A DNA stretch of 64,000 nt from Candidatus Omnitrophota bacterium (GCA_020429915.1 JAGQKV010000015.1:65593-129592); one strand, 5' to 3'; positions 51,017 to 61,194 are shown, counted from the stretch's first letter. Numbers and translations are program-made. The notes: a model not told the origin generated them from the letters alone.

Positions 51017-51379
51017 CTATTCTTCATCACGATGCACGGTGTCCGGCGAAAAAGCGGGCAGGCAGATGGCGACGTATTTGGCGCCCTCCGCCGGGGTACT
51101 GTATTGCACCCACTCGCCTTTGCTGACGATGACGGCCTGACCGGCCCGCACATCAATGGTCCCGTCCTCGGTTTTTACGGTCAGCGTCCCCTCCAAGACC
51201 AGCGTGTACTCGTCGAACTCGGGAGTTTGCCCGGGTTCGACCCAGCCCTGCGGACTGTCCATCCGGGCAATGCTGACATCCGGCGTGGCGCTATTGACGC
51301 GTCCGATATATTCCTGAATGACCTTGGGTTTGTTGCCGGCGGCTTCGATGCGCGTCGGCACGGCAATCAGTTTGGCCAT
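51017..51379 (-). CDS. Cupin-domain protein.
   Basis: AAGGAG RBS; 120 aa with a cupin beta-barrel pattern (YTLVLEGTLTVKTEDGTIDVRAGQAVIVSKGEWVQY). Confidence 0.6.
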   Translation of the reverse strand: MAKLIAVPTRIEAAGNKPKVIQEYIGRVNSATPDVSIARMDSPQGWVEPGQTPEFDEYTLVLEGTLTVKTEDGTIDVRAGQAVIVSKGEWVQYSTPAEGAKYVAICLPAFSPDTVHRDEE

Positions 51380-52907: not shown

Positions 52908-54416
52908 TTAGCCGAAGAGATTTATCTGCTGTTCGGCCTTTCGGCGCTTGGGCGGTGGGGGGTCCTCCAGGGATTTGAGGTGATCCGCAATATCATTCAG
53001 GTAGCGGGACGGCTCACAACGGTAGGATTGGCCGAAAATCGAGCGTTTGCGCGCTCCCAACAGATACAGCTGCCGTTTGGCCCGTGTCATGCCCACATAG
53101 AATAACCGGCGTTCCTCCTGCGGATCCGCCGGCAGGCCCTCCAACCGCAACGGCAGCAAACGCTCCTCACAGCCGACCATAAAAACCACCGGAAATTCCA
53201 ACCCCTTGGACGCGTGCAGCGTCAGCAGGGATATCTTTTCAGCGGCCGGCGCGATGTTCGCGGGAGCGGCCGGACACAATTCGTCCTCCTCGTCCCCCGT
53301 GGCCGGCTGGGCCGCGTGACAGGGAAACCCCATCCGGTCCAGGGCCTTACGCAGTGCATGCTGCTGGCTGTTGAGACGGAACAACACCGCGATATCGCCG
53401 AAGGAAACCTGCTGGTCCTCATGGGAGGCTACCCGGCCGGAATCCTGTGAAAACATCGAGGCGCCGCCGATTAATTTCTCAATCTGGTGTGCCACATACT
53501 CAGCCTCGGCCGCGGCGGTCGGCAGGGTGTGGATGAGCAACCGTCCCTCCTGATAAATCCTGGCGGTCAACGGCGGCACCCCGAAGCGGTTGAACTTCTC
53601 GATCACCTGCGTGCTGGCACTTAACAATTCGGCACTGCTGCGGTAGTTCTCAGCCAGATTCAAACAGCCGGCGCCGGGAAAGTCCTCGGCAAAGCGTTCG
53701 AAATACGCCACATCCGCGCCCCGGAAACTGTAAATCCCCTGATTGGGATCCCCGATCGCCGTGATGCCGTTGGCATCCGTCACCAAGGCGACCAACAAGG
53801 CGTGCTGCAGGGGGTTGATATCCTGGTACTCGTCGACAAAGATATGCGCGTAACGCCGTTGATACCCGGCCAGGACCTCGGGCTGCTCCTGCCATAACCG
53901 CCACACGCGCCACAACAGATCATCATAGTCCAGCAATCCCGCCCCGGACAAAACGGCATCATATTCGCGGACATCGGTCCCGGGCTCCTCGCCGATGGCC
54001 TCGCAGGCCTTCCAGCGCGATATCTCCGACAAGCGCGCGTTGAGTTTGCTTTGCGTCAACTCCGGCCAACGTGCCGCCAGCAGCGGACGGATTTCCTCCG
54101 GAGCGGCCACCCGGAAGTCCTTCGACAGTCCGGCCCGCGCGCAGTGGTCCCGCAAAACTTGCAGACAAAACCGGTGAAAGGTCCCGGCGGTGAGGTTCTC
54201 CCCGGACACGTTCAGGGACGCCAGGCGTTCCTGTAGTTCTCCGGCCGCTTTGTTGGTGAACGTGATGGCCAGAACCGCTTTGTCCCCGGATAAACCGGAG
54301 GCCAGCCGCGCGATGCGGTGTGTCAGGGTATGCGTCTTGCCGGTCCCCGGACCGGCGATGATCAGTAGGTGACGGCCGTCAAAGTCCACGGCCTGTTGTT
54401 GGGATGGATTTAACAT
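52908..54416 (-). CDS. UvrD/PcrA/Rep-family ATP-dependent DNA helicase, compact at ~503 aa.
   Basis: Start MLNPSQQQAVDF...LLIIAGPGTGKTHTL (motifs I/Ia); FVDEYQDINPLQ (motif II); LAENYRSS; FPVVFM...YVGMTRAKRQL (motif VI). The ATG lies 5 nt after the stop of the PHP-nuclease gene. Confidence 0.8.
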   Translation of the reverse strand: MLNPSQQQAVDFDGRHLLIIAGPGTGKTHTLTHRIARLASGLSGDKAVLAITFTNKAAGELQERLASLNVSGENLTAGTFHRFCLQVLRDHCARAGLSKDFRVAAPEEIRPLLAARWPELTQSKLNARLSEISRWKACEAIGEEPGTDVREYDAVLSGAGLLDYDDLLWRVWRLWQEQPEVLAGYQRRYAHIFVDEYQDINPLQHALLVALVTDANGITAIGDPNQGIYSFRGADVAYFERFAEDFPGAGCLNLAENYRSSAELLSASTQVIEKFNRFGVPPLTARIYQEGRLLIHTLPTAAAEAEYVAHQIEKLIGGASMFSQDSGRVASHEDQQVSFGDIAVLFRLNSQQHALRKALDRMGFPCHAAQPATGDEEDELCPAAPANIAPAAEKISLLTLHASKGLEFPVVFMVGCEERLLPLRLEGLPADPQEERRLFYVGMTRAKRQLYLLGARKRSIFGQSYRCEPSRYLNDIADHLKSLEDPPPPKRRKAEQQINLFG

Positions 54417-54421
54417 GATGA

Positions 54422-55717
54422 CTAAAACAACGTTAGCTGCTCGGCGGCGAGGATGCTCTGCTTCTCTTCGGGCGAAAAGATCTTGATGGTGCCGAATTCC
54501 CCGTCGTATCCCGAGGCGATATGGATATCCCCGGCGCGCATTCGGCGGATGGCCTCGGCCAACAGGGCCCCGCCCGCCTTCTGCACACGCTCGAGCGGAC
54601 AATCCAGCAGAATAAACAATTCATTGCCGACCTCGGCCAGCAGTTTGCGGTAGATATTCTGGACCCGCTTGCTGTTCGGTCCGACACCCTGGGTCTCGGC
54701 GATGATCTCGGCCAACGGAACGAGACTGTGATAAGGACGCCAGTTGGGAGACTTGCGCCCCTCCGGGTGATCGGCCAGCTCTTCGACGCGGGCCAAAACA
54801 CCGACGGTGACCGGTTTGCCGCACACCGGACACAGTCCGTTGTGTGCCGTGGTCTCTCGCGGGTGCAGTCGAGTCCGACAATTGCGGTGTCCGTCGTAAT
54901 GGTACTTCCCCTCATCCGGAAAAAATTCAACCGTCCCCTTAAGCCCGGGATCCGTGGTGTGATCCTTAAGCGCCCGATAGATCGCCGGATAGGAAAGTTC
55001 GGTATCATAGACCGTGGCCTCGCGGCCGAGCTTCGACGGAGAATGGGCGTCGCCGTTAGACACCAAAACATAAGGGTCGAGCTGGGATAAGCGCCAGTTC
55101 ATGGGCGGGTCCGAGGATAATCCGGTCTCGCAGGCGAAGACATGCGGGGTTAAGTCTCCGAAGCAATCTTCCATGCGGTCAAAACCGCCCTTGGAACCGA
55201 GCGCCGAAAACCACGGCGTCCAGATATGCGCGGGAATAAGATAACTGAGCGGATCCGATTCCAGCACGATCTCCAGCAGGTCCCGGGAATCGAGCCCGAG
55301 GATCGGCCGGCCGTCCGAACGGATATTGCCGATCGCTCCCAGCCGGTCGCGGATCCTGGCGGCGGCTTCAAAACTGGGCGCGAACACGCAGTTGTGGACC
55401 TTGCGGACCTTATCCAGCCGTTTGTAGATGTTGGAAATCTCCACGGTCAGCATAAAACGGATATCCATGGCGCAGGCCGGCGGGAGTTCGTCACACGTGG
55501 CGTCGCGAAATTCCTTTTTCAACCGGAACAAACCCGGCTCGGCGGGTTCGAGTTTGGTCTCTAATTCGGTGAACCAGGCCGGATGCGTGAAGTCACCGGT
55601 ACCGATGACCTGGATACCCTTGAACTGGCCCCAGAGATTCAGATATTCGAGATTGAGATTCTTGGATGTGGCGCGGGAATAATAGGAATGCAGATGCACG
55701 TCGGCATAAAACTTCAT
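54422..55717 (-). CDS. PHP-domain nuclease-like protein with a C-terminal CxxC zinc ribbon; endonuclease Q-like.
   Basis: N-terminal MKFYADVHLHSYYSRATS ... VIGTGDFTHPAW is the PHP motif. C-terminal CPVCGKPVTVGV is a zinc ribbon. 431 aa, comparable to archaeal EndoQ. Confidence 0.5.
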   Translation of the reverse strand: MKFYADVHLHSYYSRATSKNLNLEYLNLWGQFKGIQVIGTGDFTHPAWFTELETKLEPAEPGLFRLKKEFRDATCDELPPACAMDIRFMLTVEISNIYKRLDKVRKVHNCVFAPSFEAAARIRDRLGAIGNIRSDGRPILGLDSRDLLEIVLESDPLSYLIPAHIWTPWFSALGSKGGFDRMEDCFGDLTPHVFACETGLSSDPPMNWRLSQLDPYVLVSNGDAHSPSKLGREATVYDTELSYPAIYRALKDHTTDPGLKGTVEFFPDEGKYHYDGHRNCRTRLHPRETTAHNGLCPVCGKPVTVGVLARVEELADHPEGRKSPNWRPYHSLVPLAEIIAETQGVGPNSKRVQNIYRKLLAEVGNELFILLDCPLERVQKAGGALLAEAIRRMRAGDIHIASGYDGEFGTIKIFSPEEKQSILAAEQLTLF

Positions 55718-55770
55718 GCAAAAATCTTAGCAAATCATCAGTCGCATTTCAAACAATTAAAGCTATGCGG

Positions 55771-56259
55771 TTACTTCCGATAGCGCTGGCGGGACTCTTC
55801 GATGATATCGTAGGCGGCCTGCTTGGCGGCCCAACCTTCAACACTCGTTTTTTTGTCTTCAAGGTCCTTGTAGACATTGAAGAAATGCTCGATTTCCTTG
55901 AGCAAATGCGGCGGGACTTCGTCGAGGCTGGTGATGTGATTCCACAACGGATCGCTGATCGGGATGCAGAGGATTTTTTCATCCGGACCTTTTTCATCCG
56001 TCATCTTGAACAGTCCGATCGGGCGGGCTTCGATTTGACAGCCGGGAAAGGTCGGTTCGGTCACCAGGACCAACGCATCGAGCGGATCACCGTCGAGCGC
56101 CAGCGTATCCGGGATAAAGCCGTAGTCAGAAGGATAATGCACGGCAGAAAACAGCATCCGGTCAAACTTGATGACATTGCGTTTCGCGTCGAATTCATAT
56201 TTATTACGGCTGCCCTTGGGGATCTCAACCGTCACCCAAATTGTCGGTTCATGTGACAT
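55771..56259 (-). CDS. ppa: Inorganic pyrophosphatase (family I).
   Basis: Full-length match to the soluble PPase family (EIPKGSRNKYE...DGDPLDALV); 162 aa. Confidence 0.9.
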   Translation of the reverse strand: MSHEPTIWVTVEIPKGSRNKYEFDAKRNVIKFDRMLFSAVHYPSDYGFIPDTLALDGDPLDALVLVTEPTFPGCQIEARPIGLFKMTDEKGPDEKILCIPISDPLWNHITSLDEVPPHLLKEIEHFFNVYKDLEDKKTSVEGWAAKQAAYDIIEESRQRYRK

Positions 56260-56316: not shown

Positions 56317-56345
56317 ATTATAGGGCAGGCCGGTGAGAGCGTCAA
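56317..56345 (-). promoter_or_regulatory. Sigma70 promoter of ppa.
   Basis: Reverse strand reads TTGACG, a 17-nt spacer, then a perfect TATAAT about 60 nt upstream of the ppa ATG. Confidence 0.55.
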
Positions 56346-60036: not shown

Positions 60037-61194
60037 TTAATTGTTGTACACATTCAGAGTATCGTCGGCAATGTGATCCCACGAAAACGTGGTCTCCGCC
60101 GTTTTTCGACCGTTGCGACCCATCCAGTGGGCGTGTTCCCTTTTTTCGAGCATGGTCCCCAGTCCCCAGTTCAGGGAATCCGGCTGAGGACTCACTTTAT
60201 ATCCGTTCACATCGTGCCAAACAATCTCGGAAGGGCCGCCCTGGTCCGAAGCCACCACCGGTTTGCCCGCGCTCCACGCCTCCAGAATGACGATTCCGAA
60301 AGGCTCATTACGGCTGGGAACAACCACGCAATCAGCGGTCTTGAACAAATCTTTCAGACGCCAACCGCTGACACTGCCCAAAAACCGGGTTGCGTGCGCG
60401 ATCCCGATTTGACGGCTTTGGTCTTCTATGAACATCCGCATCCCGCCGTCGCCGGCAAAGACAAACTTGGCGTCCGGATAATGCGCCAGTATTTGCGGAA
60501 TGCCTTCCACCAGAATATCCGGGCCCTTCTGATATACCATCCGTCCGACGAAGAGGATCAGCGGATCATACTCACCGATCTCATACATTTTGCGAACGGC
60601 GAGACTGTCGATCCATCCGTCGAACTGCTGCACGTTGACTCCGTTATAAACGACGTCGACTTTGTCGTCCGGAGAACTGTACAACCATTGCAATTCGTTC
60701 TTCAGCGTATGCGACACCGCAATGACCCGGTGCGCGTGATACATACCGTTCCATTCGTGATGCGCCACCTCTTCCGAATGTCCGCCGGCAAAGTTGTTGC
60801 CGCACCGGCCGTATTCGGTGGAATGCATAGTAAAAATCGGTTTGCCGTCCGTCGCATCTTTCAACCAAATCATCGCGTTGGCCGTCAGCCAGTCGTGCGC
60901 GTGAATGATATCGAAGCGGCCCACCTGGTGCTGCGTCTCCAAAAAACGGTCCACGAACGCGCGGCACATATTCATGACATCGTCCTGAAAATGCTGCTGA
61001 TAGTCATAAATGCACCGGTGGTAACAAACACCGTCGACCCACTCCAACGGCGGTTGATCCTGGCCCATGCGGGTAAAGACATGCACCTCATGGCCTTTGC
61101 GGGCCAGCGCCGCGGACAGATCCGAAACGTGAACCGCGATACCGCCTACAGCAATACTGTGTAAAGACTCCCAAGAAAAGAACGCAATTCTCAT
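60037..61194 (-). CDS. GT4-family glycosyltransferase; putative alpha-1,4-glucan (glycogen-like) synthase.
   Basis: N-terminal MRIAFFSWESLHSIAVGGIAVHV; C-terminal EPFGIVILEAWSAGKPVV (GT-B E-x7-E region); 385 aa. Confidence 0.75.
   Translation of the reverse strand: MRIAFFSWESLHSIAVGGIAVHVSDLSAALARKGHEVHVFTRMGQDQPPLEWVDGVCYHRCIYDYQQHFQDDVMNMCRAFVDRFLETQHQVGRFDIIHAHDWLTANAMIWLKDATDGKPIFTMHSTEYGRCGNNFAGGHSEEVAHHEWNGMYHAHRVIAVSHTLKNELQWLYSSPDDKVDVVYNGVNVQQFDGWIDSLAVRKMYEIGEYDPLILFVGRMVYQKGPDILVEGIPQILAHYPDAKFVFAGDGGMRMFIEDQSRQIGIAHATRFLGSVSGWRLKDLFKTADCVVVPSRNEPFGIVILEAWSAGKPVVASDQGGPSEIVWHDVNGYKVSPQPDSLNWGLGTMLEKREHAHWMGRNGRKTAETTFSWDHIADDTLNVYNN

Follow-up and report, generated by a model that had tools for sequence, protein, structure and literature searches.

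An endonuclease Q gene paired with a compact UvrD-family helicase in Candidatus Omnitrophota: a candidate clamp-tethered excision repair unit

What is an archaeal-type lesion nuclease doing beside a helicase in a bacterial genome? The question is raised by a stretch of 64,000 nucleotides (nt) from a Candidatus Omnitrophota bacterium (GCA_020429915.1, JAGQKV010000015.1:65593-129592; the whole stretch is called the window here). On its minus strand it carries a gene for a homologue of endonuclease Q (EndoQ), followed directly by a gene for a small UvrD-like helicase. We consider it probable, though well short of certain, that the two genes are the halves of one clamp-tethered alternative excision repair unit for deoxyuridine (dU), deoxyinosine (dI) and apurinic/apyrimidinic (AP) lesions, a unit that in most bacteria is a single fused protein. 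The argument rests on the identity of the nuclease, on the architecture of the helicase, on the distribution of fused and split forms, and on two short peptides of the kind that binds the β sliding clamp. The features of the pair are as follows.

54422..55717, minus strand: endonuclease Q homologue, 431 amino acids (aa), with a PHP catalytic domain, a zinc-binding domain (H277, C280, C296, C299) and a C-terminal helical domain
55717 (ATG) to 54424-54422 (TAG), minus strand: ends of the EndoQ open reading frame (ORF), which begins MKFYADVHLHSYYS...GDFTHPAW
54425..54439, minus strand: C-terminal pentapeptide QLTLF, EndoQ residues 427-431, of the β-sliding-clamp-binding type
54417..54421, minus strand: intergenic gap of 5 nt, TCATC, between the EndoQ TAG and the helicase ATG
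52908..54416, minus strand: compact superfamily 1A (SF1A) helicase of the UvrD/PcrA family, 502 aa, all motifs intact, without a 2B subdomain
54416 (ATG) to 52910-52908 (TAA), minus strand: ends of the helicase ORF
53241..53309, minus strand: short acidic linker, helicase residues ~370-392, AQPATGDEEDELCPAAPANIAPAAE region, at the place of the 2B insertion in UvrD, PcrA and Rep
52914..52928, minus strand: near-C-terminal QINLF, helicase residues 497-501, followed by G502, of the β-clamp-binding type
55724..55752, minus strand: promoter-like site TTGAAA-17-TAAGAT, TG-extended, from a consensus scan only

An endonuclease Q and a helicase without a 2B domain

A first-pass annotation of this DNA had taken the upstream gene for an EndoQ-like PHP protein, and the PDB, NCBIfam and fold searches agree with it. 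When the protein was compared with all PDB chains by phmmer, the best matches were two chains of Pyrococcus furiosus EndoQ (PfuEndoQ), 5zb8_A (E 2.7e-48) and 7k30_A (1e-47), with residues 5-418 aligned to residues 5-385 of the PfuEndoQ chain, that is over the full length; no other PHP protein in the PDB fell below E=0.5, the subsequent matches being noise. The sole NCBIfam match is TIGR00375 (E 1.3e-47, model positions 72-374 only). The Pfam release used, which is older than PF27218, gave no match for the nuclease, the generic PHP domain included; close homologues carry the newer PF27218 and the NCBI name 'endonuclease Q family protein'. An AlphaFold2 (AF2) model of the window EndoQ has a mean predicted local distance difference test score (pLDDT) of 87 and a predicted template modelling score (pTM) of 0.89. 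Foldseek superimposed it on 5ZB8 and 7K30 with template modelling scores (TM) of 0.80-0.88 (0.81-0.88 for 5ZB8), root mean square deviations of 2.6-3.4 Å and E ~1e-36, while the next-ranked PHP proteins reached only TM ~0.3 and E>=2e-6. The model thus keeps the three-domain EndoQ fold (PHP catalytic, zinc-binding and C-terminal helical). Identity as a histidinol phosphatase or as PolX was considered and rejected, since no other PHP family competes in the NCBIfam, PDB sequence or PDB fold searches.

The residues tell the same story. D6, H8, H10, E93, H108, H164, G199, L200, S201, D223 and H225 are invariant in the alignment of the window EndoQ (17 aligned sequences). Among them the metal ligands H8, H10, E93, H108, H164, D223 and H225 correspond to H8, H10, E76, H84, H139, D193 and H195 of PfuEndoQ, and H164, G199 and S201 of the lesion pocket to Pfu H139, G169 and S171. 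These three Pfu residues set lesion selectivity, and G169-S171 belong to the pocket that excludes T and A (PMC8307549). Zinc would be held by H277, C280, C296 and C299 (H277-x2-C280 ... C296-x2-C299), at the positions of Pfu C249, C252, C268 and C271. The C-terminal CxxC zinc ribbon of the first-pass annotation thus stands as a four-ligand zinc finger, with His rather than Cys as the first ligand. At this ligand (residue 277, in the 54881-54889 region) bacterial EndoQs switch between His and Cys; P. furiosus has Cys. By sequence, fold and residues the nuclease is a genuine EndoQ.

PfuEndoQ extrudes uracil, hypoxanthine, xanthine or an abasic site and incises the strand directly on the 5' side of the lesion nucleotide, which keeps a 5'-phosphate and faces a free 3'-OH. 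In archaea EndoQ works on single-stranded (ss) and also on double-stranded (ds) DNA (PMC8307549). By homology, the window enzyme should likewise nick directly 5' of dU, dI, deoxyxanthosine (dX) or AP, with 3'-OH and 5'-P ends as the product (activity described in PMC4357722). The window EndoQ and those of P. furiosus and Thermococcus kodakarensis (PF1551, TK0887; 5ZB8, 7K30-33) share full-length homology, the three-domain fold, the catalytic and pocket residues, the zinc finger and a C-terminal clamp peptide. They differ in that identity is only 30-34%, that the first zinc ligand is His instead of Cys, and that the window PHP domain has ~30 extra residues. Furthermore, the archaeal clamp peptide is a PCNA-interacting peptide (PIP) box, whereas the window EndoQ ends in the bacterial β-clamp-type QLTLF, and the window EndoQ is encoded together with an SF1A helicase that is fused to it in relatives. 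We know of no SF1A helicase partner of archaeal EndoQ.

The partner was described earlier as a compact UvrD/PcrA-like helicase with intact motifs, and Pfam, PDB phmmer and motif mapping bear this out. It matches UvrD-helicase (PF00580; E 1.1e-60, 206.1 bits against a gathering threshold of 23) and UvrD_C (PF13361; E 1.7e-33, 117 bits against 25.6). Its SF1 motifs are Q (residues 2-6), I (22-28, GPGTGKT), Ia (52-58), II (195-199, DEYQD), III (222-234), IV (~258), V (399-407) and VI (440-446), and they fall in invariant columns of the homologue alignment. The best PDB matches are 1PJR, 2IS4 and 3LFU; Foldseek ranked PcrA/UvrD on top (E ~1e-32) for an AF2 model with pLDDT 79, in which residues 370-391, with pLDDT below 50, are disordered. 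By homology it is an ATP-driven SF1A motor, predicted to run 3'->5'. The scores against the NCBIfam equivalog models lie far under their cutoffs (PcrA 318.9 against 911.2, UvrD 276.7 against 1144, Rep 269.2 against 951), and by this comparison the protein is not an orthologue of any of the three.

The alignment with PcrA (1pjr) accounts for the small size. Helicase residues 2-317 match PcrA 12-345 and residues 390-481 match PcrA 554-646, so that PcrA 346-553 (~208 aa, including 2B) corresponds to only ~72 aa of the window protein (318-389). The helicase is compact because the 2B regulatory domain is deleted; its architecture is not the four-subdomain 1A/1B/2A/2B arrangement. We also measured how far motif V lies from an anchor in 2A (D-I-A-V-L-x-R). 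This spacing is 58 aa in the window helicase, 61 aa in five close split relatives and 113-213 aa in fused relatives (mostly ~115-130 or 150-213). All loci with a spacing of at most 61 aa are split and no fused protein falls under 113, a correlation that rests on few independent events, the short-spacing loci being phylogenetically clustered. Deletion of 2B in the engineered RepΔ2B reportedly activates the Rep monomer and makes it hyperactive; the window helicase, having lost 2B, may accordingly be regulated by its partner or by the clamp.

The window helicase thus has the fold and all motifs of UvrD, PcrA and Rep, the SF1A enzymes of nucleotide excision repair, mismatch repair and rolling-circle replication. 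UvrD unwinds after incision by MutH or UvrC, and the job that we propose for the window helicase would likewise be unwinding from a repair nick. It differs from these enzymes in reaching about a third of the equivalog cutoffs, in lacking 2B (which makes it a natural counterpart of RepΔ2B), in its clamp-binding tail, and in having one dedicated nuclease partner. The loss of 2B and the clamp tails of EndoQ and helicase are all absent from the first-pass annotation.

Both ORFs lie on the minus strand where that annotation had placed them, with the nuclease start and GDFTHPAW as quoted there and with a spacing of exactly 5 nt; its helicase length of 503 aa counted the stop codon. A longer, TTG-initiated helicase ORF (564 aa from 54602, overlapping EndoQ) was rejected, homologues beginning at the same M-LNPSQ Q-motif. 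Translational coupling of the two genes is plausible from the gap; because no Shine-Dalgarno-like sequence is visible within the final 20 nt of the EndoQ gene, it is something that we can only infer. GenBank holds the same helicase sequence as MCA9394436.1, under the title 'ATP-dependent helicase [Candidatus Omnitrophota bacterium]', and the nearest EndoQ homologues likewise come from metagenome-assembled genomes (MAGs) of Omnitrophota. No paralogue of either protein was found elsewhere in the window.

Fused and split forms across bacteria

If nuclease and helicase work together, their association should reach beyond this locus. GTDB genomes, one for each species, were searched for EndoQ motifs, and confirmation of the matching stretches left EndoQ relatives in at least 537 species genomes. 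The best 80 loci of these at least 537 relatives were analysed by ORF and tblastn. They span more than 12 bacterial phyla, with members in Omnitrophota, KSB1, Latescibacterota, Planctomycetota, Chloroflexota, Fibrobacterota, Myxococcota (Sorangium), Gemmatimonadota, Acidobacteriota, Binatia, Desulfobacterota (Desulfonema magnum), Proteobacteria, Actinomycetota (Saccharopolyspora, Actinopolyspora), Bacteroidota, Spirochaetota and Elusimicrobiota. EndoQ and helicase form a single ORF in 67 of the 80 loci, joined by a linker of 35-130 aa into full-length products of ~1,030-1,200 aa. Nine loci have separate, adjacent and co-oriented genes, counting the interrupted L009 and the apparently frameshifted L067 described below, and in related split loci the gap between them runs from -7 to 190 nt. 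No helicase was detected downstream in the remaining four, one of which (L040) is cut by a contig end while three (L023, L041 and L051) are on intact sequence.

An exhaustive HMMER search of 1.84 billion representatives of 50%-identity clusters points in the same direction. It returned 3,866 clusters at E<=1e-3 and 1,093 at E<=1e-30; among the best 150 representatives, 129 are at least 900 aa long and two are at most 440 aa. The pair, which the first-pass annotation did not regard as a standard bacterial repair module, is therefore no rarity but the split form of a widespread and usually fused architecture, and the view of EndoQ as best known from archaea understates its spread in bacteria. 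Comparative genomics shows that EndoQ and helicase act together.

We also considered that a standalone EndoQ might have come to lie beside a general-purpose helicase by chance. Standalone EndoQs do exist, as in Brevibacillus, where the gene lies beside a NUDIX gene and has no helicase, and the three intact loci without a downstream helicase could be read in the same way. Against this stand the 67 fusions in more than 12 phyla, the occurrence of both genes on the same contigs in Omnitrophota, and the fact that the helicase (319 bits against cutoffs of 911-1144) is not an orthologue of UvrD, PcrA or Rep. The fusion data effectively refute chance, and we give it almost no credence.

A neighbour-joining (NJ) tree built from the EndoQ domain gathers the helicase-linked EndoQs in a single clade that leaves out Brevibacillus and Pyrococcus, and it groups the loci largely by taxon. 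Split forms crop up within fused lineages at three or more points, from which we infer that the window arrangement came about when a fused gene was broken at its linker. The standalone EndoQs of Bacillus pumilus and B. subtilis resemble the window protein in being bacterial EndoQs and indicate that the family works in bacteria: they nick at dU, dI and AP sites (Shiraishi 2017, as cited in PMC5961232). The Bacillales EndoQ differs in being a lone gene, the Brevibacillus one lying outside the helicase-linked clade; this gene sits on a megaplasmid and adjoins NUDIX and spoIIM, with no helicase.

Several individual loci deserve mention. In a Planctomycetales MAG (L009, 4712-7484) three small genes, for a 167-aa Cys-rich protein, a 136-aa cupin and a 92-aa protein, lie between EndoQ and helicase; the operon can therefore be interrupted. 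The cupin is homologous to the one at window 51017-51379, ~1.5 kb downstream of the window pair. In an Acidobacteriota MAG (L067, 7494-9170) the helicase is spread over three frames and is likely a pseudogene or an assembly error. The EndoQs of L023, L041 and L051 belong to the helicase-linked clade, and their helicases may have been lost secondarily or have moved elsewhere; in L023 a UvrD-like gene of lower similarity (30% identity) lies on the opposite strand, 2.6 kb upstream.

Public records obscure the architecture in both directions. Some EndoQ-only proteins of ~430 aa are mis-named 'DNA helicase UvrD' or 'PcrA' (P0074, P0102, P0104, P0112, P0118), names that they presumably inherited from fused relatives. 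The fusions themselves are labelled only 'UvrD-helicase domain-containing protein', 'AAA family ATPase' or 'TIGR00375 family protein' (P0391-P0396), which leaves the EndoQ domain invisible.

Clamp-type peptides and a proposed repair mechanism

The bacterial β clamp is bound by pentapeptides of the consensus QL[S/D]LF (Qxx[L/M]F). The window EndoQ ends in ...EQLTLF and the helicase in ...KRRKAEQQINLFG, with QINLF after a basic patch KRRKAEQ. We scored the terminal motif as Q[LMIVF]x[LMIF][FLWMY] within the last nine residues. It is present in 97 of 103 compact helicases, in 95 of 129 long representatives, many of the others being truncated, and, at the loci, in 60 of 64 C-termini of helicases or fusions. 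It is also present in 102 of 114 EndoQ-only homologues, where the ending takes the form Q[LM]x[LMIF][FL]. By comparison, a nine-residue window taken anywhere in these proteins contains it at a background rate of 0.0012. Fusions carry a second copy at a fixed position, 10-15 residues past the EndoQ domain: 61 of 64 have an internal xxx[LMIFA]F or Qxx[LMIF][FLM] there, the Q being present in 34 of those. Each unit, fused or split, thus has two clamp-type peptides, which equals the number of pockets on the β dimer. The terminal QLxLF is absent from the standalone EndoQ of Brevibacillus. In archaea PCNA binds the C-terminal PIP box of EndoQ (dissociation constant 55 nM) and stimulates cleavage, and β-clamp motifs were remarked in bacterial EndoQ homologues in the same work (Shiraishi 2016, PMC4858679).

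In five Desulfobacterales loci or so (L044, 935-4510, and ~4 others) gyrB and dnaN, the latter encoding the β clamp, lie directly upstream of the fused gene on the opposite strand. This adjacency is probably lineage synteny, notable beside the clamp-binding motifs.

We propose the following sequence of events. EndoQ would nick immediately 5' of a dU, dI, dX or AP lesion. The helicase would then engage this nick, track 3'->5' on the undamaged strand and peel off the lesion-bearing 5' end, upon which a flap or 5' nuclease could remove the displaced strand and polymerase and ligase could restore the duplex. The C-terminal QLxLF-type motifs would tether EndoQ and helicase to the two pockets of the β clamp dimer on newly replicated or nicked DNA, a parallel to the stimulation of archaeal EndoQ through PCNA and PIP box. 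In the Omnitrophota lineage the fusion would have been split at its disordered linker and the helicase would have lost its autoinhibitory 2B domain, and because of this loss it is probably controlled by the partner or the clamp rather than by 2B. For archaea a review sketches helicase, FEN1, polymerase and ligase acting after the EndoQ nick (PMC8438529); in the bacterial system the helicase appears to be built in. Whether EndoQ, dedicated SF1A helicase and two β-clamp peptides amount to a self-contained, replication-clamp-coupled nick-and-unwind excision repair pathway in hundreds of species and more than 12 phyla is a wider claim, which we put forward tentatively and hold to be somewhat doubtful.

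A known parallel is NucS/EndoMS of Actinobacteria and Archaea, also an archaeal-type lesion or mismatch endonuclease that is recruited by a C-terminal motif to the β clamp or PCNA and serves a non-canonical bacterial repair route (Takemoto 2018, as cited in PMC8438529). It differs in its unrelated PD-(D/E)XK fold, in making double-strand cuts at mismatches and in having no dedicated helicase.

Several points weigh against the proposed repair unit. The event order and the strand tracked by the helicase are drawn from analogy, clamp binding is deduced from the motifs, and short linear motifs can be misread. The biochemical evidence comes from EndoQs without a helicase link, so that function in the helicase-linked clade is assigned by homology. 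The NJ tree carries no support values. Moreover, Pol I nick translation can in principle remove a 5'-lesion without a helicase, which leaves the need for a helicase unexplained. Finally, the TIGR00375 score of 163 bits lies under the curated cutoff of 326.6. This places the window EndoQ on a divergent branch of the family; the helicase-linked clade has diverged from the TIGR00375 seed and could differ in substrate range.

Two alternatives leave the pair in DNA repair or replication. The helicase may be a motor that moves EndoQ during lesion search, or that strips the tightly bound nuclease or clamp from the nicked product for turnover, with Pol I nick translation removing the lesion; UvrD, by analogy, turns over UvrBC. 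This idea draws on the same coupling evidence as the repair unit (67 of 80 loci fused, 129 of 150 representatives long), and the loss of 2B, evidently tolerated, would fit a simple translocase. PfuEndoQ is also slow, with observed rate constants (kobs) of only 0.19-0.88 per min (PMC5961232), so product release could be limiting. On the other hand, the UvrD-type duplex-unwinding motifs are fully kept. We think this role unlikely but take it seriously, as nothing in the evidence discriminates search or turnover from strand displacement.

Alternatively, the helicase-linked EndoQ may have shifted its substrate to ssDNA or fork structures, ribonucleotides or R-loops, and may process stalled replication intermediates rather than deaminated bases. 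The TIGR00375 score below cutoff, the low identity to PfuEndoQ, the dual clamp motifs that together with the helicase suggest fork association, and the action of archaeal EndoQ on ssDNA besides dsDNA could all be read in this way. However, the complete three-domain fold is kept, and the residues equivalent to the selectivity residues H139, G169 and S171 of PfuEndoQ are invariant in the bacterial clade together with all metal ligands. A shift of substrate therefore seems to us quite improbable.

Genomic context, defence and meaning for bacterial repair

The remaining option is defence. Upstream of the pair lie genes for an inorganic pyrophosphatase (ppa, 55771-56259), a DUF2934 protein, a GH57 branching enzyme, a DUF4912 protein and a glycogen-synthase-like glycosyltransferase (GT); on the other side follow an unassigned 220-aa protein, a TrkA-C protein and cupins. 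The GT (window 60037-61194, minus strand; GT4/GT5) also matches PF20706 'GT4 in conflict systems' at 8.7e-14, but its generic GT matches are much stronger, and its place beside the GH57 branching enzyme suggests a role in glycogen metabolism rather than in conflict. When 677 ORFs flanking 81 loci were clustered all against all, no further conserved neighbour emerged; the next families occur in at most eight loci each and reflect lineage synteny, gyrB-dnaN in Desulfobacterales being an example.

The promoter-like site at 55724-55752 stops 6 nt short of the EndoQ ATG, and its use is uncertain; if used, it would imply a leaderless EndoQ mRNA. A stronger site at 56317-56345 (minus strand; 11 of 12 consensus matches), from the same kind of consensus scan, lies upstream of ppa, and the pair may be read through or co-transcribed from this gene. 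The promoter and terminator scan was uninformative, with counts at the background level.

A nuclease beside a helicase could in principle be an anti-phage system that destroys phage DNA with uracil or other non-canonical bases, for which the nearest analogue would be Gabija (GajA-GajB), in which a nuclease gene likewise adjoins one for a UvrD-like helicase of ~500 aa. The helicase indeed matches the GajB models of PADLOC with E-values up to 3.4e-80, and a review relays the suggestion of an antiviral role for bacterial EndoQ (PMC8307549). Yet these models are generic UvrD profiles, and the helicase scores higher against PcrA/UvrD. The EndoQ protein matches no PADLOC family, and PADLOC recognised no GajA-type (OLD-family ATPase-TOPRIM) partner at the pair. 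Homologues of EndoQ were found neither in 50,697 phage genomes (tblastn) nor in 2.9 million IMG/VR contigs, which were scanned for motifs and checked by tblastn, and the single match in 72,556 plasmids is the standalone gene on the Brevibacillus megaplasmid, which is 733 kb in size. No defence-island or mobile-element context was seen: the neighbours at the window are housekeeping genes and differ between loci, the EndoQ-domain tree groups loci largely by taxon, and the clamp-binding motifs point towards host replication and repair. From Gabija the pair is set apart by its nuclease (PHP-type EndoQ instead of an OLD/TOPRIM ATPase), by the clamp motifs, and by being chromosomal and mostly fused. 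We regard an anti-phage role as improbable to a high degree. The first-pass annotation had left both deaminated-base repair and defence open; repair is favoured and defence disfavoured.

What is new here has to be separated from what was known. EndoQ itself, its structure, its PCNA link, the active Bacillus homologues and the clamp motifs of bacterial homologues are already known. In the searchable literature, which yielded only general reviews on the subject and did not extend to Shiraishi 2017, we found no description of the systematic coupling of EndoQ to an SF1A helicase, of the dual-motif layout, of the breadth across phyla or of the 2B-less split variant. That work distinguishes three EndoQ families by 'domain organization' (Shiraishi 2017, as cited in PMC5961232), which may already include the helicase-fused type; this is the main uncertainty on novelty.

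Reviews up to 2024 place EndoQ in 'a few bacteria' (including PMC8438529). The at least 537 species representatives and the 3,866 clusters indicate that it is common in bacteria. Outside Bacillales a UvrD-type helicase of its own nearly always accompanies it, in the same protein or in a gene of the same unit. What follows EndoQ incision in alternative excision repair thereby becomes a directly testable model, with named proteins in culturable organisms such as Desulfonema magnum (fused protein WP_207682410.1), Sorangium and Saccharopolyspora (S. hirsuta, fused protein WP_150066597.1), and the 2B-less helicase offers a natural experiment on SF1A autoinhibition. If the proposal is true, bacteria would possess a so far unrecognised excision repair route that supplies the missing step after EndoQ incision, and the Omnitrophota form would show a UvrD-family helicase that naturally does without 2B and has handed its regulation to the partner or the clamp.

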